Origin: a virus
Taxonomy: Duplodnaviria > Caudoviricetes
IMG/VR virus record: IMGVR_UViG_3300028909_000001
Length of the DNA stretch: 64,000 bases
Reading direction: 5' to 3' (one strand)
Shown here: positions 1 to 60,870 of the stretch, piece by piece
Position numbering within the stretch: position 1 is the first letter of the stretch
Layout of the letters: each line of letters opens with the position of its first letter
Made by a program: the position numbers and the translations under genes
Notes under the pieces: model-generated
Told to the model about the DNA's origin: nothing
What the model saw: the letters and a program-made list of their open reading frames with translations, nothing else
Database searches by the model: none

Positions 1-1
1 A

Positions 2-370
2 TCAGAAGAAGCAGCTACTCAATACTCACCTACCCTAACTAATTGTAGAGATTGTAGAGGTTGTAGTAATTGTGATGATTGTAGTTATTGTGATGATTGT
101 AGTAATTGTAGTGGTTGTAGTACTTGTGGAGGTTGTATTAATTGTAGTGTTTGTAGTGTTTGTAGTGATTGTAGTAGTTGTGGAGGTTGTATTAATTGTA
201 GTGTTTGTAGTGTTTGTAGTGATTGTAGTAGTTGTAATGATTGTAGTGATTGTAAAAAATGTTATAAATGTGATAATGGAACACATCTAGAGCCAGTTCA
301 AATTAAGACTGAAGTTATGATAAGACCAGAATTAGACATTAATGATAGAAAGTTGGAACCAGACTTATGA
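2..370 (+). CDS. (Cys-x-x)n repeat protein, family A copy 1 (5'-truncated by window edge)
   Basis: Frame from nt 2 reads SEEAATQYSPTLTNCRDCRGC...IRPELDINDRKLEPDL-TGA; TGA 368-370 overlaps the next ATG (ATGA). Not in the ORF track because the start lies outside the window. Confidence 0.85.
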   Translation, partial: SEEAATQYSPTLTNCRDCRGCSNCDDCSYCDDCSNCSGCSTCGGCINCSVCSVCSDCSSCGGCINCSVCSVCSDCSSCNDCSDCKKCYKCDNGTHLEPVQIKTEVMIRPELDINDRKLEPDL

Positions 371-744
371 CAATAACAAAAAGAAATAATAGATGGTATG
401 ACGAAAATAATAATAGTTGGATAACTGAAGAATCAGCTACTCAATACTCACCTACCTTAACTAATTGTTATGATTGTAGAGGTTGTAGTAATTGTAGTAG
501 TTGTAGAGATTGTTATAATTGTAGTTATTGTAGTAGTTGTAGTAATTGTAGTAGTTGTATTAATTGTAATAATTGTAGTAATTGTAGTAATTGTAATAAT
601 TGTAATAGGTGTAGTGATTGTAGTGATTGTAGTTATTGTAGTCGTTGTAGAGATTGTAGTGATTGGACTGATAATAAGAAATATGAACCGGTAATTAGAC
701 CATTTATAGACTGTACTAACAGACTATTAGAACCAGATTTATGA
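367..744 (+). CDS. (Cys-x-x)n repeat protein, family A copy 2
   Basis: Conserved leader MTITKRNNRWYDENNNSW..SPTLTNC, Cxx array, ends NRLLEPDL; ATGA overlaps at both ends. Confidence 0.9.
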   Translation: MTITKRNNRWYDENNNSWITEESATQYSPTLTNCYDCRGCSNCSSCRDCYNCSYCSSCSNCSSCINCNNCSNCSNCNNCNRCSDCSDCSYCSRCRDCSDWTDNKKYEPVIRPFIDCTNRLLEPDL

Positions 745-1238
745 ATAACAACCTTAAAATAGTAGAACAAAACATATTATTAGCAGACGCCCAAGTAGTT
801 GCTCATTGCTGTAATAATATGAACAAAATGGGTAGTGGGGTAGCCAGAGCCCTAAGATGTAGATTTCCGGAAGTATATGCAACTGATACCAAGTCTTATA
901 TTAACTTTGGTTCAGCTATGTTGGGTAAATGTGTGTTAGTTCCTATCACTACTCTACCTAATCAGACCAAGCTACTATACGTTGCCAATCTATATGGTCA
1001 ATTAGGTTATGGTACAATGCATCTTAGATATGTGCATTATGAAGGATTTTACTTAGCTTTAGAGTCATTAATAAAGCAAATGAGTGAGCAGAATATGACT
1101 AGACTGGCTTTACCTTATAAGATAGGTGCGGATAGGGCTGGCGGTAATTGGAATATTATTGAAACTATGGTTAAGGAGGTTATTAAAGGAAGTAACATTG
1201 AAGTTACTCTATATAAACTTCCTAAAAAGTTAATGTAG
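741..1238 (+). CDS. Macrodomain (ADP-ribose binding/hydrolase) protein
   Basis: VVAHCCNNMNKMGSGVARALRCRFP matches the macrodomain N-x-x-x-x-x-G-x-G-V-A loop; LYVANLYGQ and LALPYKIGADRAGGNW match the phage macrodomain C-terminal motifs. Confidence 0.85.
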   Translation: MNNNLKIVEQNILLADAQVVAHCCNNMNKMGSGVARALRCRFPEVYATDTKSYINFGSAMLGKCVLVPITTLPNQTKLLYVANLYGQLGYGTMHLRYVHYEGFYLALESLIKQMSEQNMTRLALPYKIGADRAGGNWNIIETMVKEVIKGSNIEVTLYKLPKKLM

Positions 1239-1240
1239 TT

Positions 1241-1474
1241 ATGACTCTTTATATCATTCTAAGACATATCAGATCTCCATCAACTAACGCTATTATAGAC
1301 GTCCTATATCAAGCGTTTCAAAATAAGGAGGCAGCCCTGGAATATATCAAATTTTTAACAGATAATAGTACTGTAGTAGGTGAATTTGAATTGAAGGAGT
1401 TTGTATCGGTTGAGAAAGATGAGATAACAATTAGAAGTGAGGGTGGGGAAAGAAGATTAGAACCAGATTTATGA
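1241..1474 (+). CDS. Small hypothetical protein, family B, with shared C-terminal tag
   Basis: 77 aa; MTLYII..KEAA..GEFELKEF..IRSEGGERRLEPDL; ATGA overlap with the next Cys gene. Confidence 0.8.
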   Translation: MTLYIILRHIRSPSTNAIIDVLYQAFQNKEAALEYIKFLTDNSTVVGEFELKEFVSVEKDEITIRSEGGERRLEPDL

Positions 1475-1884
1475 CAATAACTAAAAGAGATACTAGATGG
1501 TATGACGAAAACTATAATAGCTGGGATACTAAAGAATCAGCTACTTTACACTCACCTACCCTAACTGATTGTAGATGGTGTAGAGGTTGTAGTGATTGTA
1601 GAAGGTGTAGTAATTGTAGATATTGTAGTGATTGTAATGCTTGTAGTGGTTGTAATGGTTGTAGAGATTGTTATAATTGTAGTAATTGTATTGATTGTAG
1701 AGATTGTAATGGTTGTAGTGATTGTAGTAGTTGTAGAGATTGTATTTATTGTAGTAGTTGTAGTAATATTTCTTCAGAAAATGATAAATCGTGGTTTAAG
1801 TCCATGTATTATGGAGATGAAGTTAATAAGGAAATAAGACCAGAATTAGACATTAATAATAGAAAGCTAGACCTAGATTTATGA
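1471..1884 (+). CDS. (Cys-x-x)n repeat protein, family A copy 3
   Basis: Same leader and Cxx array; ends IRPELDINNRKLDLDL. Confidence 0.9.
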   Translation: MTITKRDTRWYDENYNSWDTKESATLHSPTLTDCRWCRGCSDCRRCSNCRYCSDCNACSGCNGCRDCYNCSNCIDCRDCNGCSDCSSCRDCIYCSSCSNISSENDKSWFKSMYYGDEVNKEIRPELDINNRKLDLDL

Positions 1885-2207
1885 TTGTATATGCTATTAA
1901 AATATTGAAAGTTAAATATAGTAGAAATACCCTACCTAATAAGTTTGTTAGAGTAGTTATTAAGTATATCGAATTTTATGATAGGGAAGGTTACTGTGAT
2001 GATGAAGAACAGACTAGTATTGAACCTGTAGATTTATACCAAGCCTCTTTGTATCTTAGTAAAGAAGCTGTGGAACAAGAAATTAAAAGGGTAAGGATGA
2101 TAAAAGAAGCGTACAAATACGAAATAGTTGAGATAGAATTAGCTGAGTTAAGTAAGCCTGAAATAAGAATAGAGAACCAGTACAGAAGATTAGATCTAGA
2201 ATTATAA
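1881..2207 (+). CDS. Small hypothetical protein, family B, with shared C-terminal tag
   Basis: 108 aa; MIVYAI..KEAV..IVEIELAEL..IRIENQYRRLDLEL. Confidence 0.8.
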   Translation: MIVYAIKILKVKYSRNTLPNKFVRVVIKYIEFYDREGYCDDEEQTSIEPVDLYQASLYLSKEAVEQEIKRVRMIKEAYKYEIVEIELAELSKPEIRIENQYRRLDLEL

Positions 2208-2212
2208 ACAAT

Positions 2213-2653
2213 ATGCCTAAAGCCACAAATATAAATTGTCATGCCGCCAAAGATATCAATAAACTACCAGATAACACAGTATTGATATCAATAAATGAAG
2301 AATATGAGCCACTTTATCCTTTAAAGTTGGATAGAGAGTCAGAAAATGTGTTAACTTTAAGATTTACTGATATAACTGCACCTTTAACTCATGAAGGCGA
2401 AATGTATCATCCTATTAGTGCTGAAGATGCTTTTAAAATATTAAAGTTCATTGATAAGCATTTAACCAAAGATTTCATAGTTCATTGTGCAGCTGGGGTA
2501 TCTAGAAGTTCAGCTATTTGTCTCTATCTACATATTATGCATTCATATGTGTTAAAAGACAATTTTTGGCTTTCTTCTTCACCTAATTGCTATGTACTTG
2601 GTATGTTAATGCGGCGTAAGGTTGAGCAGGAATCTATGTTAGACGAGATTTAG
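2213..2653 (+). CDS. Cys-dependent (PTP/dual-specificity-like) phosphatase
   Basis: P-loop IVHCAAGVSRSSAI (HCx5R); upstream LISI and LRFTDI motifs typical of small phage PTP-like proteins. Confidence 0.88.
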   Translation: MPKATNINCHAAKDINKLPDNTVLISINEEYEPLYPLKLDRESENVLTLRFTDITAPLTHEGEMYHPISAEDAFKILKFIDKHLTKDFIVHCAAGVSRSSAICLYLHIMHSYVLKDNFWLSSSPNCYVLGMLMRRKVEQESMLDEI

Positions 2654-2654
2654 T

Positions 2655-2900
2655 ATGTCAGATCCAAATCCTCGTATCTTTCCTACTCGATTTCGGCTTT
2701 TGAGTAATATGGAAGTCATAATAACTAAAGAAATAGATGTACAGTGGTGGGGTGATCTACATTATTTATTCGATGTAATTATAGAAGATAATAATAACTA
2801 CTTTTTAGTATATAATAAAGTAGGAGAGACACAGGTTAAAGCTATTATAAAAAGGAGAGAACTTAAACAGTATAATGGTGAATACTATGAAAATAACTAA
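2655..2900 (+). CDS. Hypothetical protein
   Basis: 81-aa ORF tightly packed between neighbours; no recognised motif. Confidence 0.65.
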   Translation: MSDPNPRIFPTRFRLLSNMEVIITKEIDVQWWGDLHYLFDVIIEDNNNYFLVYNKVGETQVKAIIKRRELKQYNGEYYENN

Positions 2901-3219
2901 AAGAGATGATAGATGGTATGACGAAAACGATAATAGTTGGTCTACAGAAGAATCAGCTACTCAATTCTCACCTACTCTAACTAATTGTATTAGTTGTAGA
3001 GATTGTAGATGGTGTAATGATTGTAGAGATTGTAGAGATTGTTATAATTGTAGTAATTGTAGTAATTGTAGTAATTGTAGTAGTTGTACTTATTGTAGAT
3101 GGTGTAATGATTGTAGTAACTGTATTGATTGTAGTGATTGGACTGATAATAAGAAGTATGAACCAGTAACTAGACCGTTTATAGATTGTAGAGATAGACT
3201 ATTAGAACCAGATTTATGA
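2887..3219 (+). CDS. (Cys-x-x)n repeat protein, family A copy 4
   Basis: Start moved from 2875 to ATG 2887 to match the paralogue leader (MKITKRDDRWYDEN); ends DRLLEPDL. Confidence 0.88.
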   Translation: MKITKRDDRWYDENDNSWSTEESATQFSPTLTNCISCRDCRWCNDCRDCRDCYNCSNCSNCSNCSSCTYCRWCNDCSNCIDCSDWTDNKKYEPVTRPFIDCRDRLLEPDL

Positions 3220-3614
3220 AAATAACAAAAATAGCTAATAGATGGTATGACGAAAACAATAATAGCTGGGATACTGAAGAAGCAGCTACTTTATATTCAC
3301 CTACCCTAACTAATTGTTATAATTGTAGTAATTGTAGTAATTGTAGTGTTTGTAGTGATTGTAGTAATTGGTGTAGTAATTGTAATGATTGTGATAGTTG
3401 TAGAGATTGTATTAATTGTAATAATTGTGGTAGTTGTAGTAGTTGTAGTAATTGTAGGAGTTGTTGTAGGTGTAGTGATTGTGATAATTGTAAGTTTATT
3501 GCTTCTTTATTTGATAGAGTTGAAGTTGATGCAAGTTTAATTGAAAGCTGCAAAGAAAATTTAGTTAGAGAAGAATTTGACTTAAACAATAGAAAACTGG
3601 AAATAGAACTATGA
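3216..3614 (+). CDS. (Cys-x-x)n repeat protein, family A copy 5
   Basis: Leader plus Cxx array; ends VREEFDLNNRKLEIEL. Confidence 0.9.
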   Translation: MKITKIANRWYDENNNSWDTEEAATLYSPTLTNCYNCSNCSNCSVCSDCSNWCSNCNDCDSCRDCINCNNCGSCSSCSNCRSCCRCSDCDNCKFIASLFDRVEVDASLIESCKENLVREEFDLNNRKLEIEL

Positions 3615-3883
3615 AGACACTATACGAATTTGAAGAACAACAAAAAGAACTTATAGCTGCTTGTGAGAGAGAAGCTAAAGCTAAATTAGAAGGCAAAAAT
3701 GTATTTATGGATACTTTTGCGCATCGGTTTGAAGATATAGTTGAAGAAATACAAAGAGATGCTAGGAGAGAAGGGGTTAGAGATTGTATAAGGGATATAC
3801 ATATGTGTAAATCAGTTCAATCTAATCCAGACATTATTTATACCCATGAATTAATAATAGCAAGATTAATTAAACTATTATGA
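3611..3883 (+). CDS. Hypothetical protein (helical)
   Basis: 90-aa ORF coupled by ATGA overlap; no recognised motif. Confidence 0.7.
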   Translation: MKTLYEFEEQQKELIAACEREAKAKLEGKNVFMDTFAHRFEDIVEEIQRDARREGVRDCIRDIHMCKSVQSNPDIIYTHELIIARLIKLL

Positions 3884-3931
3884 ACATATATGAAGTAGTA
3901 GATAAATATGAACTAGCACAATATATTCTAA

Positions 3932-4225
3932 ATGAAAATATACCTAATACAGGTTCTAAAACTAAATGGTTTTCTATATGATAATGCTGATGAAATTCGG
4001 TATTTAGCAGTGAATTCTTATATAGACTATACAACAAGGGAAGTAAAAAATGCTAGAGTATTTGAAGATAGAGAAAAAATTGGAGACGAACTATATGAAA
4101 TTACACTAATGAATAGTTTTAATTTTCTCGTTACTAAAATTCTTGAGTTTGAGCTAGTAGAATTTAAAGGTAATAAGTCAATTAGAAGTGAGGGAGGAGA
4201 GAGAAGATTAGAACTAGACTTATGA
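3932..4225 (+). CDS. Small hypothetical protein, family B, with shared C-terminal tag
   Basis: 97 aa; MKIYLI..REKI..ILEFELVEF..IRSEGGERRLELDL. Confidence 0.8.
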   Translation: MKIYLIQVLKLNGFLYDNADEIRYLAVNSYIDYTTREVKNARVFEDREKIGDELYEITLMNSFNFLVTKILEFELVEFKGNKSIRSEGGERRLELDL

Positions 4226-4701
4226 CAATAACTAAAATAGATAATAGATGGTATGACGAAAACAATAATAGTTGGTCTACAGAAGAACTAGCTACTACTG
4301 ACTCTCCTACCCTAACTAATTGTAGTAGTTGTAGAGATTGTAGATGGTGTAGGAATTGTATTCATTGTAAAGGTTGTATTGGTTGTATTGATTGTTATGA
4401 TTGTAATGATTGTAGTAATTGTAGTAGTTGTAGTGGTTGTAGTAGTTGTATTGATTGTAATCGTTGTAGTGATTGTACTGGCTGTATTGATTGTAGTTAT
4501 TGTAGTTATTGTAATAATTGTAGTGAGTGTAGTAACTGTAAAAACTGTTATAAATGTAATACCTTTTCTTTTTGTAGAAACTGTGCTTTTGGTTTTAAGA
4601 AAAGCTATTATAAACCTATGAAGTATAAACGTAGAGCTAAGAAGAGTAAAATTAGACAGGAATATGACATTAATGATAGAAGATTGGAGATTGAACTGTG
4701 A
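4222..4701 (+). CDS. (Cys-x-x)n repeat protein, family A copy 6 (longest array)
   Basis: Leader, long Cxx array, basic linker, ends IRQEYDINDRRLEIEL. Confidence 0.9.
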   Translation: MTITKIDNRWYDENNNSWSTEELATTDSPTLTNCSSCRDCRWCRNCIHCKGCIGCIDCYDCNDCSNCSSCSGCSSCIDCNRCSDCTGCIDCSYCSYCNNCSECSNCKNCYKCNTFSFCRNCAFGFKKSYYKPMKYKRRAKKSKIRQEYDINDRRLEIEL

Positions 4702-4943
4702 TAGCAAACCATATAATATTAACCAGCTGTTACTTAGTAGTAGGGATACTTATAGCTTTAAGAACTGTTATTGAATATACTGACATCCATTACTATCCTA
4801 AGAAGTGTAAGTTAATATTATTTATCCTAGTAATTGCCATATATGCTGTAATAGATGTAACAATTTGGCCTTTATATGCAATTTTAGGTTTGATATCAGG
4901 AATAAGAAGATTAACCAAAGAATTTTTTAAGAATAACAACTAG
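4698..4943 (+). CDS. Small membrane protein (about 2 TM segments)
   Basis: GTG start overlapping the TGA stop; two long hydrophobic stretches and a basic C-terminus. Confidence 0.7.
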   Translation: MIANHIILTSCYLVVGILIALRTVIEYTDIHYYPKKCKLILFILVIAIYAVIDVTIWPLYAILGLISGIRRLTKEFFKNNN

Positions 4944-4968
4944 ACAAACAAACAAATTAACGTATAAT
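4941..4968 (+). promoter_or_regulatory. Sigma70-like promoter, probably giving a leaderless transcript
   Basis: TAGACA (4941-4946), 16 nt spacer, TATAAT (4963-4968); ATG 4975 lies 6 nt after the -10 box. Confidence 0.6.
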
Positions 4969-4974
4969 AAACAT

Positions 4975-5607
4975 ATGAAATTAACATCAATAACATCAAT
5001 AATGGCAGTAATTAGTCTATGCACTATTTCTGCTTTCGGTCAAACTAATGTCACTCAAGTCCCAAACTTGATGGCCAACATTCCTGTCTCAACAGCTGTG
5101 CAGGCTATCTATCAGGACATTGCAAATTCTGGTATTATGCAGGCAACTAATTGGGGAGTTAGTCCTTATGGTACTTATGCACCTAAGTCAGCTAACAAAT
5201 ATGGTGGTGGTGTATTGGCAGTATATAATGTCCCAACACTTACCGGGTCTTTAGGAGCAGTTGGTGCAGTGTTAGGGGCAGATTGGTTGGGGTCCTGGTC
5301 TTTGGTCAGTGGTTCAGTAACTCTTTCAACACCTACGCATCCATTAGCATCAACATCACTATTAAACTGGCTTCCTACCGGTATTCGTAACATTGAAGCT
5401 GATCCTATTGCTATTGCTGGTATCGGAACACCCTTATCTGGGTCATCTGGGGCAGCTGAGTTGTGGGATATAGGATACAACGTTGATATTTATAATACTG
5501 CTACTAGTAAAGTCGGCGCTGGGTTTACTTGGGGTGAATGGATCAATGCCGGAACTGAGTCTGGACATAGATATCACTTATTCGTTAGTTGGAAATACAA
5601 CTTCTAA
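4975..5607 (+). CDS. Secreted, probable outer-membrane beta-barrel protein
   Basis: Sec-type signal peptide MKLTSITSIMAVISLCTISAFG|Q; amphipathic Gly/aromatic strands; C-terminus YHLFVSWKYNF fits the BAM beta-signal (terminal Phe, aromatic at -3). Confidence 0.65.
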   Translation: MKLTSITSIMAVISLCTISAFGQTNVTQVPNLMANIPVSTAVQAIYQDIANSGIMQATNWGVSPYGTYAPKSANKYGGGVLAVYNVPTLTGSLGAVGAVLGADWLGSWSLVSGSVTLSTPTHPLASTSLLNWLPTGIRNIEADPIAIAGIGTPLSGSSGAAELWDIGYNVDIYNTATSKVGAGFTWGEWINAGTESGHRYHLFVSWKYNF

Positions 5608-5637
5608 TTTAGTTAGAGTAGTTTATACTACTACACT

Positions 5638-5961
5638 ATGAAACTAACAAAAAGAAATGATAGATGGTATGACGAAAACAATAATAGTTGGATAACAGAA
5701 CAACTAGCTACTCTACACTCACCTAATCTAACTAATTGTAACTGGTGTAGTGATTGTAGTAATTGTAATAATTGTAATAGTTGTAGTGATTGTAGTGATT
5801 GTAGAGATTGTTATATGTGTGTTAATTGTAGGAGTTGTAATCATCTTGCAAATAAGAAAAACTATAAACCACAACCTATTAAATCTAAGAAAAAGAAGAA
5901 AATTACTAAAATTAGACAAGAATACAATATTAACGATAGAAGATTGGAACTAGAATTATGA
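5638..5961 (+). CDS. (Cys-x-x)n repeat protein, family A copy 7 (shortest array)
   Basis: Leader plus Cxx array; ends IRQEYNINDRRLELEL. Confidence 0.9.
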   Translation: MKLTKRNDRWYDENNNSWITEQLATLHSPNLTNCNWCSDCSNCNNCNSCSDCSDCRDCYMCVNCRSCNHLANKKNYKPQPIKSKKKKKITKIRQEYNINDRRLELEL

Positions 5962-6656
5962 AAATAATAGCAGATGGTGATAGTTGGAACAGCTACCCAC
6001 TTCCTTTCTCTGGTGGTGGGTTGGCTGATCATTTAGCTGTTGTGTTAGATATTGATATTGAAAACTATGCCCATCCCGGTGATAGTACTGAAGAAACAAT
6101 GGGCTTAAAGAAGAGATTAAAGTTGGAACAATATCTACCAAACAGTGATATCTTATTATTCTCAGGTGGTGGTGATGATTTTGTGGGTGATCAGCTTCCT
6201 ATATTTCTAAATGATAATAAGGATGGAAATATTAATAAAGCCATAGATCTTGATAGACTTGATGCAGCCATGGATCTTGCTATAGCAGATTATGAGGATC
6301 TGTTTCAGTTAAGAGATGAAATAGCTCCTAACTGTCTCATAATTACACATAGCTATGATTTTCCTGTTCCTGAAATGATTGGTAATGGTGTATTGTGGTT
6401 AGGTCCTTGGATTAAACCTGGGATGGATCATTGTGGCTGGACTAATCCTAAAGATGCTGCTGATATAACGAAGCTTATTCTTTTAGAATTTGAAAGAAGA
6501 ATAAGTTTGCTCAGTCTACCTAATCATCTTCATATTAATTTTCAAGGAACATTAACTACTTCTGACTGGGGTAATGAAATACATCCTAATAGTAGTGGTT
6601 GGAAGAAGTTAGCTAATCAAATTAAATTGAAATTAGTCCATTATTTAAATAAATAA
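5958..6656 (+). CDS. SGNH/GDSL-type hydrolase
   Basis: Block I IIADGDSW, block II AHPG, block III SGGGDDF, block V NEIHP. Confidence 0.85.
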   Translation: MKIIADGDSWNSYPLPFSGGGLADHLAVVLDIDIENYAHPGDSTEETMGLKKRLKLEQYLPNSDILLFSGGGDDFVGDQLPIFLNDNKDGNINKAIDLDRLDAAMDLAIADYEDLFQLRDEIAPNCLIITHSYDFPVPEMIGNGVLWLGPWIKPGMDHCGWTNPKDAADITKLILLEFERRISLLSLPNHLHINFQGTLTTSDWGNEIHPNSSGWKKLANQIKLKLVHYLNK

Positions 6657-6669
6657 TATCAATCTTAAC

Positions 6670-6697
6670 ATAGCCTCCTACAAAATTAGGAGGCTAT
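6670..6697 (+). terminator. Hairpin, probable intrinsic terminator or processing stem
   Basis: Perfect 11-bp stem ATAGCCTCCTA / TAGGAGGCTAT with a 6-nt loop, in the intergenic gap; weak U-tract. Confidence 0.6.
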
Positions 6698-6717
6698 TAT
6701 CATTTACAAACAGCACT

Positions 6718-7131
6718 ATGAAACTAAGAAAACGAAATAATAGATGGTATGACGAAAATAATAATAGTTGGATAACTGAAGAATCAGCTACTCAATACTC
6801 ACCTACCTTAACTAATTGTTATGATTGTAGAGGTTGTAGTAATTGTAGTAGTTGTAGAGATTGTTATAATTGTAGTTATTGTAGTAGTTGTAGTAATTGT
6901 AGTAGTTGTATTAATTGTTATAATTGTAGTGATTGTAGTAATTGTAGAAATTGTATTAGTTGTAGTCGTTGTAGTGGTTGTAGTATTTGTAAAGGTTGCA
7001 AACAGTCAATAGAATTAGACTTTAAGAAAAACTATAAACCACAGCCTATTAAATCTAAGAAAAAGAATAAAATTGCTAAAATTAGACAGGAATACAATAT
7101 TAATGATAGAAGATTGGAGATTGAACTATGA
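6718..7131 (+). CDS. (Cys-x-x)n repeat protein, family A copy 8 (mosaic of copies 2 and 9)
   Basis: 6734-6918 is identical to 383-567; 6987-7111 is identical to 7540-7664; ends RRLEIEL. Confidence 0.9.
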   Translation: MKLRKRNNRWYDENNNSWITEESATQYSPTLTNCYDCRGCSNCSSCRDCYNCSYCSSCSNCSSCINCYNCSDCSNCRNCISCSRCSGCSICKGCKQSIELDFKKNYKPQPIKSKKKNKIAKIRQEYNINDRRLEIEL

Positions 7132-7310
7132 TAATAAACAATAAAAATACAATCGATGATACTTATATATTGGTTGATAAGATAAATGGAACATTAAATT
7201 TTGAAGACCTTACCATAGTTGATTTAAGTGATGATGAAGTTAGAATACTTAATTACGCTTATGCTTTAAATGGTAGTTCTTTACGTTATATTTCAGTAAC
7301 ACAATCATGA
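7128..7310 (+). CDS. Small hypothetical protein
   Basis: 60 aa; ATGA overlaps on both sides. Confidence 0.65.
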   Translation: MIINNKNTIDDTYILVDKINGTLNFEDLTIVDLSDDEVRILNYAYALNGSSLRYISVTQS

Positions 7311-7684
7311 AACTAACAAAAAGAGCTGATAGATGGTATGACGAAAACGGTAATAGTTGGATAACTGAAGAACTAGCTACTACATATTCACCTACCTTAA
7401 CTAATTGTTATAATTGTAGAGATTGTAGTAGTTGTAGTAATTGTAGTAGTTGTATTAATTGTAGTTATTGTAGTGATTGTATTAATTGTAATAGTTGTAG
7501 AAGTTGTAGTCGTTGTAGTGCTTGTTATAATTGTATAGGTTGTAAAGGTTGCAAACAGTCAATAGAATTAGACTTTAAGAAAAACTATAAACCACAGCCT
7601 ATTAAATCTAAGAAAAAGAATAAAATTGCTAAAATTAGACAGGAATACAATATTAATGATAGAAAGCTAGAATTAGAATTATGA
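7307..7684 (+). CDS. (Cys-x-x)n repeat protein, family A copy 9
   Basis: Leader plus Cxx array; ends IRQEYNINDRKLELEL. Confidence 0.9.
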   Translation: MKLTKRADRWYDENGNSWITEELATTYSPTLTNCYNCRDCSSCSNCSSCINCSYCSDCINCNSCRSCSRCSACYNCIGCKGCKQSIELDFKKNYKPQPIKSKKKNKIAKIRQEYNINDRKLELEL

Positions 7685-7795
7685 AACTTCACATATTATA
7701 TAATATAGCAACAATGGCAGATATTAAGTTGACTAAGAATGAAGCTAGACCACTTAATTATAGCCCTCCCAGATATGTTCTGTTTTAATCTACCT

Positions 7796-7826
7796 AAGGT
7801 GATAGCTGCAAAGCACACCTTTTTTT
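7796..7826 (+). terminator. Probable intrinsic terminator ending the accessory array
   Basis: AAGGTG / CACCTT outer stem, inner GCT-GCAA-AGC (GNRA loop), T-run 7820-7826. Confidence 0.5.
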
Positions 7827-7880
7827 AGCTATCAGTAAGTTTGCCTTGAATATAGATTAACTTGATTGTATTATATAGTT

Positions 7881-8432
7881 ATGTCAGCTATTATCTCATT
7901 GTGTGAAAGGAATGGTGTTATACCAGGCTTGATTACAGAGAATATAAGCTCAATTAGTTGGAAAGCTGTAGATGATGTTACTACTCCATATAGTTCTTAT
8001 AATGCTGTCCTCAATCTAGGCAATAATAGCTATACTGTATATAATTATTTTAAATTTACTGGAGTATTTACAAGTATAGGAAATGTATCAGTTACTCATT
8101 TAACCGGTACCCTCCCTTCCGGAGTGAAATTAATGTCGAATCCAACTATAACTCAAACTAGTAATAGACCACTTTATATTACACCTACTACAGCAACTAC
8201 CTCCATCACCTCCAATGATTTAAGTAGTGTAGGTAGTTCAGTTAATCTGTTAATAGGTCCTGCTCCTAATAATGTAGATGGTGCTGGAGCTGATGGTAAG
8301 TCTAATGCAGCTGGTAATTCAGGAACTCCATTATATAGCACATATTTTATAACTCAATTACAAGTAGCCATCAATGCCAATGCTGGAGATTTAAACAATG
8401 TAATACTCCAGGTAAGTTATAATGAAGTTTAA
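7881..8432 (+). CDS. Probable virion structural protein (beta-rich, S/T/N-rich)
   Basis: ATG 7881 preferred over TTG 7866; NSYTVYNYFKFTG and YFITQLQV strands; sits at the head of the fibre cluster. Confidence 0.6.
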   Translation: MSAIISLCERNGVIPGLITENISSISWKAVDDVTTPYSSYNAVLNLGNNSYTVYNYFKFTGVFTSIGNVSVTHLTGTLPSGVKLMSNPTITQTSNRPLYITPTTATTSITSNDLSSVGSSVNLLIGPAPNNVDGAGADGKSNAAGNSGTPLYSTYFITQLQVAINANAGDLNNVILQVSYNEV

Positions 8433-18742: not shown

Positions 18743-19488
18743 ATTGTAGGAGGGTTAGGTAGGGTTGTAGGAAGTATATCTGTAATGTTAAAATCCAACC
18801 CAATATAAACACGACTATTGTTAATATCATCGTATACTTTAAAGTGATTCCCTGCTTTTATATAGATTGGGTTGCCAGTATTTGAGGGACTAGCTCCATT
18901 AACCGTACTAACTATGCTGCTACAATCATTTACTACACCTTTAATATTGATACAAGGTAGTGGATGTCCTTCATTTCTACCCACTTCTATACTTAATTCT
19001 TGTTTTTCTGGTAATAAAGTTAATTGATATCCATCACTTAAACTCACATTTCCAGTAAGATTATTCCCATTTATATTAAGATTAGTCAGACCTAAAGTGT
19101 TGGGGTAAATCTCTATCAAAGTAGTAGGTTCAAATACAGCATTGACATTAAAGGTAAGATTATTTGATATGTGGGTTGCATCTCCTACTACTAATAAACT
19201 ATTACTACTATTTCTTACATAATAAGGATAAGTTGCAGTAAGATAGTTAGGTATCGTAAATACAGGTTGTCCAGTTATGTTTATGGATAATGCAGTAGTT
19301 GTAATTATGGTATTTAAAGTAACCGAACTAGGCACACTACTATAGAATAAGCAGGCATCAAGTATCAATGGTTTAATATATATTGTAGTACTCCCTGTAG
19401 TGATTGAATAAGGACTATTTGCTACTAAAGGATAATCCCTTAAAGCATTTTCATTCAGCCACTCTAATATTGTTGAACTATTACTCAT
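18739..19488 (-). CDS. Baseplate/fibre-associated paralogue 1 of 5
   Basis: EWLNENALRDYPL N-motif and TVNGASP..GN C-motif. Confidence 0.65.
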   Translation of the reverse strand: MSNSSTILEWLNENALRDYPLVANSPYSITTGSTTIYIKPLILDACLFYSSVPSSVTLNTIITTTALSINITGQPVFTIPNYLTATYPYYVRNSSNSLLVVGDATHISNNLTFNVNAVFEPTTLIEIYPNTLGLTNLNINGNNLTGNVSLSDGYQLTLLPEKQELSIEVGRNEGHPLPCINIKGVVNDCSSIVSTVNGASPSNTGNPIYIKAGNHFKVYDDINNSRVYIGLDFNITDILPTTLPNPPTI

Positions 19489-20914
19489 AAACTACAGACC
19501 TGGCTACATTTAAGTTACTGTCTTTAATAGGTATATTCAAGGTTAAAGTATTTCCAGTAGTTTGAGCGATGGACATTACTGCATCACCTGTAATAGTAAT
19601 TTGATTATTATATGGTGATACTCCATTAATAGTTTTTAAAGGTATAATGCTATTCAATGTAATAGTAGGTCCTCCAATAAATACAGTGTTTATATTATTC
19701 GATAAGTTGTAAGTTGATTGAAAATAAGGAGTTATATAAAGTGTATTAGTGTTGATATTGTATATATTAAAACTAGTACTATACATATTCCAACCATACA
19801 ATGCATTATTATAGATGAATATCCCTCCTAACCAAGGAACATGTTGATTAGCAGTATAATGTATAGAGTTATTTATAGTTGGATCTACTAGAGGGCCTAA
19901 TAATGTAGAAGTAGCAGTAAGACCACTAACTGTAACAGTATAAATAAAGCTGCTAAAATATACAATACTCGGCAATGTACTATAATCTTGTGGACCATTA
20001 GTAAAGGTATAAAAAGTACTATTTAGATAAGTTAGTCCTAGAGTATTAGTTATCCCAGTATCGATTCCAGTATTATTAACGGTATATGGATAATGACCAT
20101 AGTTATAAAGACTATTGTTTATTAATACCCAAAGATTAGAAGCATTATCTGTAGTGATACCAGTTATATTTCCAGTTATATTAGTTAATAATGGTGTAGC
20201 TGGAATACTGGATAAATCATAGATGGTAGCTTTATTATATTCATTTAATACTCCAATTAAATGAGAACTTTCATCATAGATAATATCATACACCTTATCT
20301 AATGTAGTTTGAGGGGAAAGCGTATTATTTACAGTATTTGCTAGAATGAGTTCCTGGCTAGAGTTAAAAAGGTATGCTTGGTTAGCAGATAATTCTAAAG
20401 TTTGTAGATTTGTAGGTAGACTAGCAGCACTGATGGTAGGGTAGCCGAAGTAGGAGCTAGTGTTATATATTAGATTGTTATCGAAAGCTATACTTACATT
20501 CCCTAATAAGCCATTAATACTATATACTCCATTAGTAGAGGTAATTGTCCTTACCGTATTATTATTGAAAGCGGCATTTAAAGTAATTATATTACTGTAT
20601 TTCTTAGCTATTATATCAGATATTAACTGGCCAAATACTAGACATCCGTAGCTTCTATTAATAGTCCTTAGTCTAACTGATACACCTTCAGACAAAGTAG
20701 ATAATGCATAAGCAAAATCATAAGCTCCATCATCCATTAATATATTTAGTATAAGCTCAGTTTCAGTAATGGTAATAGTATTTAATGTAGGTACAAAATT
20801 ATCATAGCTAATAAATGATGCATCACAGAATACTCCATTTAATCCTCCAGCATTGACTAGAGGATATTCAGTATTATTTATATTTTGCCAGTTAGTTATT
20901 CCTATTCCTTGCAT
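19481..20914 (-). CDS. Baseplate/fibre-associated paralogue 2 of 5, with inserted beta-propeller-like region
   Basis: NWQNINNTEYPL; TINGVSP; central repeats such as ITGITTDNASNLWVL and TLGLTYLNSTFY. Confidence 0.6.
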   Translation of the reverse strand: MQGIGITNWQNINNTEYPLVNAGGLNGVFCDASFISYDNFVPTLNTITITETELILNILMDDGAYDFAYALSTLSEGVSVRLRTINRSYGCLVFGQLISDIIAKKYSNIITLNAAFNNNTVRTITSTNGVYSINGLLGNVSIAFDNNLIYNTSSYFGYPTISAASLPTNLQTLELSANQAYLFNSSQELILANTVNNTLSPQTTLDKVYDIIYDESSHLIGVLNEYNKATIYDLSSIPATPLLTNITGNITGITTDNASNLWVLINNSLYNYGHYPYTVNNTGIDTGITNTLGLTYLNSTFYTFTNGPQDYSTLPSIVYFSSFIYTVTVSGLTATSTLLGPLVDPTINNSIHYTANQHVPWLGGIFIYNNALYGWNMYSTSFNIYNINTNTLYITPYFQSTYNLSNNINTVFIGGPTITLNSIIPLKTINGVSPYNNQITITGDAVMSIAQTTGNTLTLNIPIKDSNLNVARSVVYE

Positions 20915-59478: not shown

Positions 59479-60870
59479 TTATTCCCCTGCTACTGGATTA
59501 GGAGGCGGTTGTAGTCCTCTTTGTAGTTGATGTTGCTTAAATAAACCTGTATTCGCCTTAATTAAGTCAGCTGCCTCAAATGGTGAAATGGCCTGACTCG
59601 CACCAGCTTGTCTAAGGAATGCTCTAGTAATTTCCTTCTCACTACTTAATTCTGGAGCAATTCTAAGCATTTGTTGGTAAGCATCTACTACATGATGAGT
59701 AGGAAACTTACTTATAATAGGATCAGTAGCTACAAGTTCTTGTAGTAATAATGCTCTATCCCTGTTCGCTTCAGGAGTATTAGTACTGGCACTCAATTCT
59801 GGTTTACCTTGTTTATCCTTATAACCTGAAAAGCTTTTAGTTATATTCATGAGGTCAATTGCAGACTTAATTCTACTATCAAACTCCTCCTCTACCGCAG
59901 CTTTCTTTTCAGCAATACAAGTCATAACCGGATCTTCAGGGTCAGCCTTGGCAATCTTACTTCTTTCTGCCTTGATAGATGCATCGACCTGGGCTAACAA
60001 AGAATCAGTATCTGCTATCTTTTCTATATCTTGTTTAAACAATCCTTTAAAATAACTCTGTTCAAAATTAAGGTTATAGGCTGCATCTTCTGACTTTACG
60101 GTAGCTTCTTTAAGATATGTTACACTATTAATAAACTTATCATATAGTTCAGTTTCATTACATAGTGCAGCTAATTTAATGTTGGAATCATGAACACCTC
60201 TTTCTTCTTTTAGATTAGAGGTTTTATATAACAAATCCAAATATCCATTACTAGCATTACCATACTTACTAAATACGCTAGTTTCAAATTCATGCCAGGC
60301 AGATCTACAATCATTACTCTCAGCGAATTTTCTAAGTATATTGCAGAAGTTTTTATTTACTTCAAATTCAGCATCTAATCTATCTGCTTCAGCATCATAG
60401 GCTTGTTTTTGTAATTTACTAATATATTTTACACTCTTATCATAAGCACCAGATTTACTTAATTCATTTTTACCTACATCTTCAGTAAGTATTAGTTTAG
60501 CATAAGCTTCTTTATAAGGTCCTGGCTCCAAATATCTTGCAAATTTAGGAGCAGTTTCTTGGATTTGAAAAGAAGAGAATAGTTCTGATTCCAATTCTGA
60601 GGCAGTCTTTTCTTTTCCGCTATATATATCTTCAGCAACTTTGGCTGCATCAACTATGGGAAAATCATCAGCTTTTGAGTCTGGATGCTTCTTAAAGTGA
60701 TCATAGTGCAAAGCTACATTAATAGCTTCACAACTACGCTTAATAAAGTTATGATTAAGTTCCAGTGATTTAGCAACCTTAGTAGCTGCTTCTTGAGGTG
60801 GAGTACCAGTATTTATCTCAGTAACTATCTCATGGACTGCAAATTTTACCAATTCTTCAGGTGTGCGCAT
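59479..60870 (-). CDS. Large helical head-module protein with K-x-A motifs
   Basis: 463 aa; EKTAS, EKIAD, EKKAA; C-terminal ATDPII..QMLRIAPE..RAFLRQ domain. Confidence 0.7.
   Translation of the reverse strand: MRTPEELVKFAVHEIVTEINTGTPPQEAATKVAKSLELNHNFIKRSCEAINVALHYDHFKKHPDSKADDFPIVDAAKVAEDIYSGKEKTASELESELFSSFQIQETAPKFARYLEPGPYKEAYAKLILTEDVGKNELSKSGAYDKSVKYISKLQKQAYDAEADRLDAEFEVNKNFCNILRKFAESNDCRSAWHEFETSVFSKYGNASNGYLDLLYKTSNLKEERGVHDSNIKLAALCNETELYDKFINSVTYLKEATVKSEDAAYNLNFEQSYFKGLFKQDIEKIADTDSLLAQVDASIKAERSKIAKADPEDPVMTCIAEKKAAVEEEFDSRIKSAIDLMNITKSFSGYKDKQGKPELSASTNTPEANRDRALLLQELVATDPIISKFPTHHVVDAYQQMLRIAPELSSEKEITRAFLRQAGASQAISPFEAADLIKANTGLFKQHQLQRGLQPPPNPVAGE

Follow-up and report, generated by a model that had tools for sequence, protein, structure and literature searches.

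Probable gene conversion and unequal crossing-over among cysteine-ladder genes of an uncultured peat phage

The DNA analysed here, referred to as the window, is a stretch of 64,000 nucleotides (nt) of record IMGVR_UViG_3300028909_000001. It is part of a single IMG/VR contig of 127,352 bp (35.5% G+C; CheckV completeness 58%), which encodes a tail sheath and further phage structural genes. The contig contains 15 small paralogous genes, nine of them in the window (all on the + strand, within positions 1-7,700), whose products carry a ladder of Cys-x-x units and which are called Cys genes below. On the evidence of sequence comparisons, the Cys genes are very probably diversified by homology-dependent gene conversion and unequal crossing-over among the paralogs. 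Between near-identical strains they are 16- to 25-fold more divergent than the surrounding DNA. The phage is an uncultured jumbo phage from peat with a virulent-type genome, and the 15-copy family lies in its early/accessory region.

Gene family

Copies 1-9 of the window are designated c1-c9, and further paralogs on the contig cB, cC, cD, cE and cF. Ten of the 15 copies form an array that spans from 3.6 kb upstream of the window to position 7,684. Cargo genes unrelated to the Cys family, some of them without any family match, are interleaved between the copies. The protein encoded by every headed copy consists of a conserved head of 33 residues (consensus M-x-I-T-K-R-x-N-R-W-Y-D-E-N-N-N-S-W-x-T-E-E-x-A-T-x-Y-S-P-T-L-T-N), a ladder of 10-25 Cys-x-x units with a 9-nt period, a tail belonging to one of a few types, and the ending R-x-L-[DE]-x-x-L. 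Copy cE lacks the head and consists of ladder and tail. All 14 headed copies have an ATG start and a full frame, and the start overlaps the preceding stop codon in most of them. The 15 small genes hold 316 Cys codons, compared with 235 in all contig open reading frames of at least 200 residues. Their codon choice is also skewed: TGT makes up 97% of the Cys codons (76% in the background) and AGT 78% of the Ser codons (38% in the background), a sign that the ladder is homogenised as DNA.

Exact blocks and genealogies

A previous reading of the window, made from the sequence only, had described c8 as a chimera with a 5' part identical to c2 and a 3' part identical to c9. Both blocks were recovered as maximal exact matches, with 0 mismatches in 185 nt between 383-567 and 6734-6918, and 0 mismatches in 125 nt between 6987-7111 and 7540-7664. 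The 9 mismatches counted earlier by hand in the 90 nt shared by the tails of c2 and c4 (655-744 and 3130-3219) were found again. The likenesses claimed for two other copies also held: c7 carries the tail type of c8 and c9 (distance over the last 63 nt 0.11 and 0.13, respectively), and the last part of c6 is common with c8 (distance 0.14). When all copy pairs were compared, further exact blocks were detected between cD and c1 (184 nt), c3 and cF (68 nt), cD and the tail of c2 (60 nt), c4 and cF (55 nt) and c9 and cF (53 and 43 nt). Because of its exact blocks with c9, c4 and c3, cF appears to be a fine mosaic of these three. The first 183 nt of c1 are identical to cD, which lies 2.1 kb upstream, outside the window. 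Since heads differ among copies at 15.6% of sites on average, the chance of a 185-nt identity is about 1e-14 per placement. On the upstream side the blocks end sharply, with identity at the background level beyond them (13/40 for cD/c1).

With c2 and c9 taken as the parents of c8, a single switch near gene nt 233 accounts for 81 of the 87 informative sites; the informative sites form 9 runs, compared with an expectation of about 43 (z about -7.6, runs test by hand). As both ends of the c2-like patch are inside the gene (start nt 17, end around nt 201-233), the patch is better described as a conversion tract than as a crossover. Thus, c8 looks like a tandem sister of c9 that has received about 185-215 nt of c2, although donor and recipient of the block are indistinguishable, because in this segment neither c2 nor c8 resembles its own alleles in the related strains B and C. 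Recombination between copies, as proposed in the sequence-only reading, is therefore upheld. Its confinement to the TGT repeat is not, since breakpoints are located also in the head (nt 16/17), in the ladder and in the tail.

The genealogies of heads and tails, which had been predicted to disagree, are incongruent (within-genome Mantel r = 0.075, p = 0.27). Pooled over 53 copies, the correlation between head and tail was 0.135, between the two halves of the tail 0.61 and between the two halves of the head 0.14. For no copy was the nearest neighbour by head also the nearest by tail; head neighbours are loosely defined, save for c2/c8 and cD/c1, the pairs affected by conversion. In P0004, a representative protein from another sample, the head and ladder start of c2/c8 is joined to a fourth tail type.

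Strain comparison

Three strains were compared: strain A, the contig of the window; strain B, represented by L006 (16.5 kb), L005 and L003; and strain C, represented by QGNH01001261 (42.7 kb used). Strains B and C, near-identical relatives from other assemblies, are collinear with the window. In non-Cys DNA, 50 of 11,691 sites differ between A and B (0.43%) and 130 of 22,259 between A and C (0.58%), and the cargo genes are 99.4-100% identical. In the Cys genes the corresponding counts are 398 of 3,632 (11.0%) and 437 of 4,600 (9.5%), with many indels besides, and these genes account for 77-89% of the between-strain substitutions in the region.

Transfer of patches between copies can be seen directly in this comparison. 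In strain B, in strain C and in L003, gene nt 91-166 of c7 (window 5728-5803) are replaced by 76 nt identical to c6, with flanks that are 98.5-100% identical; the patch is present in three assemblies from different samples. In strain B, the c9 slot holds a gene that begins with 59 nt of c7, the c3 slot one that contains 64 nt of c1/cD, and the c1 slot one that agrees with c1 only over the last 130 nt. Because this DNA is of low complexity, 18-mers were not specific enough for painting the strain B genes, and exact matches of at least 28-30 nt were used instead. Allelic differences were counted in nine slots and three strain pairs (n = 796), a paralog match being defined as an exact match of at least 30 nt to a non-allelic copy. 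In 336 of the 796 differences (42%) both alleles lay inside paralog matches, compared with 0.5% expected from random point mutation; in 92 neither allele had such a match. A simpler statistic, in which either allele matches a paralog (88%), was dropped as misleading, since 57% of the unchanged sites match as well.

Within the long blocks, paralogs are closer to each other than to their alleles. The c2/c8 segment is identical at 185/185 sites, whereas the same segment matches the syntenic genes of strains B and C at 144-159 of 185; for cD/c1 the values are 183/183 and 143-170/183. Because the paralogs there are 100% alike and the alleles just 78-93%, the long blocks of strain A are younger than the split of the strains. 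Strain B and the distant relatives L002, L004 and L007 have exact blocks of their own, up to 92 nt long and in other copy pairs.

The number of copies and the length of the ladders vary as well, and here, too, the strain comparison reveals fusion and duplication of copies directly. Strains B and C have a single fused gene in place of cC and cD, with 1.4 kb removed, and a Cys copy in a slot that is empty in strain A. Strain B has an extra copy before c8, and contig L013 has a tandem pair at the cD slot. Over 3.8 kb, the independent contig L011 is equal to the window except for 2 mismatches and one missing 54-nt unit of the tandem duplication in c1, which leaves the frame intact. The gene in the c2 slot encodes 125 residues in strain A, 119 in B and 200 in C. 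Indels of cargo are located at the borders of Cys genes. Multiple copies of the family were present in every related contig examined.

Two further differences of these strains may be mentioned here. Beside the slot that is empty in A, strain C carries an inverted segment of 307 nt (L012 merged coordinates 19449-19755) that is 100% identical to window 59487-59793, where the sequence lies inside the minus-strand gene 59479-60870. Immediately after c3, strains B and C have an extra gene of 98 residues (L006:7228-7524), whose start overlaps the c3 stop and which is absent from strain A; its product has CxxC...CxxxxC motifs and a weak match to a zinc ribbon (Ribosomal_L37ae, E 0.003).

Proposed mechanism

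Gene conversion would overwrite part of one copy with the sequence of another in non-reciprocal patches of about 30-240 nt, and unequal crossing-over would fuse, duplicate or delete copies along with any cargo that lies between them. The length of the ladder would change in frame by slippage or unequal exchange within the 9-nt repeat; as the ladder unit is 9 nt, out-of-register exchange does not disturb the reading frame. Strand invasion could be seeded by perfect tracts of at least 30 nt in head, ladder and tail, which conversion itself would maintain, and the most likely catalyst would be a phage recombinase of the UvsX/RecA type, active during replication or co-infection. As the comparisons show, heads, ladders and tails are re-paired into new combinations, and the Cys genes vary far more than any other DNA between strains that are otherwise nearly clonal. 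Neither reverse transcriptase nor a site-specific enzyme is necessary for this. The headless cE, a single natural control, has no exact match of its own of at least 30 nt to other copies, and is identical at 267/267 positions in the three strains. The head is a selected protein domain that is also kept uniform as DNA, because its synonymous sites are almost fixed within the lineage and distant relatives keep the peptide with other codons.

Several points weigh against this interpretation. The contig, at 58% completeness, yielded no RecA-like recombinase gene, and the recombinase is postulated from a relative: a RecA/UvsX-like protein (E 1.3e-28) is encoded on a related contig that also has the family. 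As strains A and B occur together in some runs, exchange during co-infection is possible, and exchange within one genome is not separable from it. In the 105-nt head, the pairwise homoplasy index test gave no significant signal (p = 0.23); as incompatibility is high at all distances, recombination and repeated mutation are indistinguishable within the head alone. In 368 of the 796 allelic differences (46%) only one allele was matched, a class that is uninformative in view of the match frequency of unchanged sites given above. Finally, the strain genomes are all short-read metagenome assemblies, and for single alleles the assembler might have mixed paralogs. The c7 patch, however, recurs in three assemblies, and a k-mer jump cannot produce it (overlap 13 nt).

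Alternative explanations

The identical blocks, or the head-tail pairings, could have been created by the assembler in a repetitive region. There are signs of such difficulty: short-read contigs of several samples break at or in Cys genes, and L011 ends 5 nt beyond the 185-nt block, agreeing at the base right behind the block (window 568) with the c8 branch and not with c2. To assess this explanation, Logan contigs (k = 31 pieces) of four peat runs, which are short-read contigs and not long reads, were placed on the window. In the independent run X10, 7540-7664 formed a separate piece of exactly 125 nt with a depth of 68.9, compared with about 33 for its neighbours, so that both the boundaries and the doubled depth coincide with the tail block; similarly, 387-504 had a depth of 82.5 versus about 29. 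A single-depth piece of the same run (6889-7016) joins the head block, the unique middle and the tail block of c8, and thus crosses both internal joints of the chimera. An independent Joint Genome Institute contig (L015) is 100% identical over 2,599 nt spanning c1, and 93-96% of the sampled words of window 300-7,800 were present in 20 peat metagenome runs. Moreover, with two direct repeats on one molecule, a single order would use all segments. As far as short-read data allow, these observations speak against the artefact that the sequence-only reading had named as a possible refutation, and we regard it as extremely improbable. 'Joints' between copies seen in the Logan contigs were not accepted as coexisting arrangements of strain A, as their sides are just 24-52 nt long and could come from other copies or strains. 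Slightly less implausible, but still very improbable, is allelic shuffling alone, in which old, divergent alleles of a slot are swapped between co-infecting strains through conserved flanks, with no transfer across slots. Strains A and B do co-occur in two of the four runs (X10 and X15) at similar depth (29 and 25.7 in X10), and their near-identical flanks would permit replacement of alleles. Such swapping leaves unexplained the perfect identity over 184-185 nt between different slots of one genome, patches equal to another slot such as the c6 patch in c7, and the 42% of differences in which both alleles match non-allelic copies. It is thus contradicted as the sole explanation, but may be an addition to gene conversion and unequal crossing-over.

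A different question is whether the same recombination has been shaped into an evolved diversification device. Selection would then retain the in-frame 9-nt repeat, the uniformity of the head and a large number of complete copies, because variable Cys-ladder proteins are of advantage, for instance in an arms race with the defences of the host, and the copies would serve also as portable homology arms that reshuffle the cargo. The concentration of between-strain substitutions (77-89%) in the Cys genes would fit, as would the intact open frame of every headed copy in three strains, the multi-copy state of the family in every related contig examined, the position of cargo indels at Cys-gene borders and the resemblance of cargo to counter-defence genes (macro/DarG-like here, Tad4 and others in a relative). 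Against these stand a ratio of nonsynonymous to synonymous substitution (dN/dS) in the head of about 0.58, which indicates only mild constraint, and the fact that with a 9-nt unit the frame is preserved automatically. High variability is expected of any multi-copy family in a recombination-proficient phage, and neither an expression site with silent cassettes nor a dedicated enzyme was found in the contig, at 58% completeness. On balance such a device seems quite unlikely. The sequence-only reading had spoken of a diversification system that needs no reverse transcriptase. Its second half can be retained, as the 127-kb contig (58% complete) contains no match to reverse transcriptase (PF00078); an evolved, selected system is the less likely reading, and the pattern fits plain homology-dependent recombination.

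Relation to known systems

For paralogs in multigene families, interlocus (ectopic) gene conversion and concerted evolution have been reviewed (PMC3966223, PMC3924837). The Cys genes share with these families the non-reciprocal patches, tracts in which paralogs are closer than alleles, incongruent genealogies, homogenisation of copies while allelic variation rises, and changes of copy number by unequal crossing-over. They differ in that about 15 tiny genes are interleaved with cargo in a virulent-type phage. The process, interlocus gene conversion with unequal crossing-over, is a known one; here it acts in a phage, and at such a rate that this family is the main source of variation at the strain level. 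The literature searched gave no report of such a gene family in a phage, and nothing specific on gene conversion among paralogs of phages or on their Cys-x-x proteins. To our knowledge, the hypervariable phage loci described so far depend on retroelements, invertases or tail-fibre swapping.

Segmental gene conversion underlies antigenic variation at Neisseria pilE/pilS, Borrelia vlsE and Anaplasma msp2. Mosaics of trypanosome variant surface glycoprotein genes also arise by segmental gene conversion (PMC3170485). Common to these families and the Cys genes are the lack of a reverse transcriptase, templated patches from paralogs, mosaic genes and high variation between lineages. In the antigenic-variation families, however, there is one expressed locus with silent, partial donor cassettes and one-way transfer, whereas in the phage each headed copy is complete with its own start, no distinction exists between donors and acceptors, and the comparison is between strains. 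It is unlikely, though conceivable, that the array is a viral counterpart of the antigenic-variation families of bacteria and protozoa, a combinatorial variation device free of reverse transcriptase whose many complete copies are kept by selection as a steady source of new head-ladder-tail proteins, and which also shuffles, duplicates or drops counter-defence cargo.

Diversity-generating retroelements of phages, of the type that acts on Mtd of BPP-1, hypervary one protein while the rest of the genome is constant. The resemblance lies in phage-borne hypervariation of a protein against a constant genome. Here, in contrast, the contig (58% complete) yielded no reverse transcriptase, there is no pair of template and variable repeats, and the changes are copied blocks, not point changes. 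Adenine was involved in 70% of 650 allelic differences and not in the other 30%; the DNA is 36% A.

Repeat units of 72-86 bp separate large modules in the Campylobacter group II phages CP21, CP220 and CPt10 (PMC4546147). As in the peat phage, repeats in a large myovirus are recombination targets, and unit number and module order vary; these phages also have one Cys-x-x ladder protein with a similar head (CPt10_1641). Their repeats are not genes, however, and their Cys-x-x gene has not been reported to be multi-copy or mosaic. The phage protein family PHROG 15341 shares the Cys-x-x ladder, but the peat lineage has a rare head subfamily in about 15 copies per genome. In the 'genomic accordions' of poxviruses, one gene is transiently amplified under selection, followed by collapse, by recombination. 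The copy number of viral genes changes through recombination of repeats in both cases; the phage differs by its standing family and by mosaic exchange.

In a phage lineage that is abundant in peat, nearly all strain-level change in a region of about 29 kb falls into one small multi-copy family. The array thus offers a natural system in which the tract lengths of recombination and its need for homology could be measured in a jumbo phage that has not been cultured. It is also a warning, since genes of this kind fragment short-read assemblies and lead them astray. The Cys-ladder proteins and the interleaved cargo are likely players in phage-host conflict.

Proteins, cargo and other features

PHROG 15341 was matched by c6 (E 1e-19, 72 bits) and c2 (E 1.8e-11); the Cys proteins gave no Pfam match and, for the five copies searched, no NCBIfam match. 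A profile of the RWYDENNNSW head, searched against 1.84 billion proteins, retrieved only 34 cluster representatives. Homologs from other environments have this head and ladder too, and so, as a single copy, do the Campylobacter group II phages. In AlphaFold2 models based on a 36-sequence alignment only the head is confident (residues 1-30, predicted local distance difference test (pLDDT) 82-85, two to three short strands and a helix), with pLDDT below 50 in ladder and tail. A low-confidence Atlas model is similar to beta-helix proteins (template modelling score 0.58-0.68), a likeness that is no more than a lead. The C-terminal R-x-L-[DE]-x-x-L ending is found also on non-Cys genes of the array, and selection on this peptide would fit, because its Leu codons vary synonymously. 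Our guess is that the Cys-ladder protein is rod-like, stabilised by metal or disulfides, with a docking tail. CXXX-repeat or other radical-SAM-modified Cys-repeat peptides were considered and rejected: there was no NCBIfam match, the period is 3 residues and not 4, and the array has no radical SAM gene. In CPt10 a radical SAM gene lies two genes from the Cys-x-x homolog, again a lead only.

In copy cB, 12.5-13.0 kb upstream of the window, a C-terminal domain of about 75 residues (pattern ..IGSR..W.G....CGCFTG.L.EF...V...H..NKFG.QYKK..; no Pfam match) replaces the short tail. The same head-ladder-domain layout (further instances L005:2462-2977, P0025 and L017) is found also in unrelated metagenomic phages and may be the original full-length form. 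In two long proteins, P0017 and P0021 (849 and 894 residues), the head profile matches 5-7 repeated stretches (W..F..AT.A.L in Ig-like repeats); this likeness is probably due to chance or very distant.

The features of the array in the window are listed in Table 1. The macro-domain protein encoded at 741-1238 has a weak match to the DarG antitoxin (NF048014, E 1.1e-7, far below the cut-off) and is a candidate counter-measure to ADP-ribosylating defence. In a distant relative (L002; Ga0311358_10000030, 217 kb) the Cys genes are located among genes matching Tad4, cREC_REC, R2K_2, AAA and HNH_5, neighbours that fit an accessory, counter-defence region.

Table 1. Cys genes, copied blocks and cargo genes in the first part of the window
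Feature	Position	Strand	Remarks
c1	2..370	+	3' 369 nt of a 426-nt gene; gene start 55 nt upstream of the window
Perfect 54-nt tandem duplication in c1 (six Cys-x-x units)	124..235	+	
c2	367..744	+	125 aa; head, Cys-x-x ladder, tail type A (ends ..RLLEPDL)
185-nt block in c2 (gene nt 17-201)	383..567	+	identical to 6734-6918
Tail A of c2	655..744	+	9/90 sites differ from c4 tail (3130-3219)
60-nt exact match to cD tail within c2 tail	678..737	+	cD is outside the window
Cargo gene, macro domain, weakly DarG-like	741..1238	+	99.9% identity between strains A and B
c3	1471..1884	+	137 aa
68-nt exact match of c3 to cF	1641..1708	+	cF is ~88 kb distant, outside the window
Cargo gene, weak dual-specificity phosphatase match	2213..2653	+	
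c4	2887..3219	+	one fused gene stands for c4 + c5 in strains B and C
c5	3216..3614	+	tandem with c4; start overlaps c4 stop
c6	4222..4701	+	159 aa; 4312-4387 equals the patch inside c7 of strains B and C
c7	5638..5961	+	107 aa
Cargo gene without family match	5958..6656	+	99.9% identity between strains A and B
c8, chimera	6718..7131	+	16 nt c9-like; nt 17-201 c2 block; 68 nt unique (6919-6986); c9 tail block
185-nt block in c8	6734..6918	+	identical to 383-567
125-nt tail block in c8	6987..7111	+	identical to 7540-7664; ends 20 nt before the stop codon
c9	7307..7684	+	125 aa; tail type B
125-nt tail block in c9	7540..7664	+	own piece in run X10, depth 68.9 versus ~33 in flanks

A promoter scan revealed no enrichment (45 found versus 46 expected). 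The sole terminator-like hairpin in positions 1-8000 (6670-6697; 11-bp stem followed by a T-rich run) lies between the cargo gene at 5958-6656 and c8.

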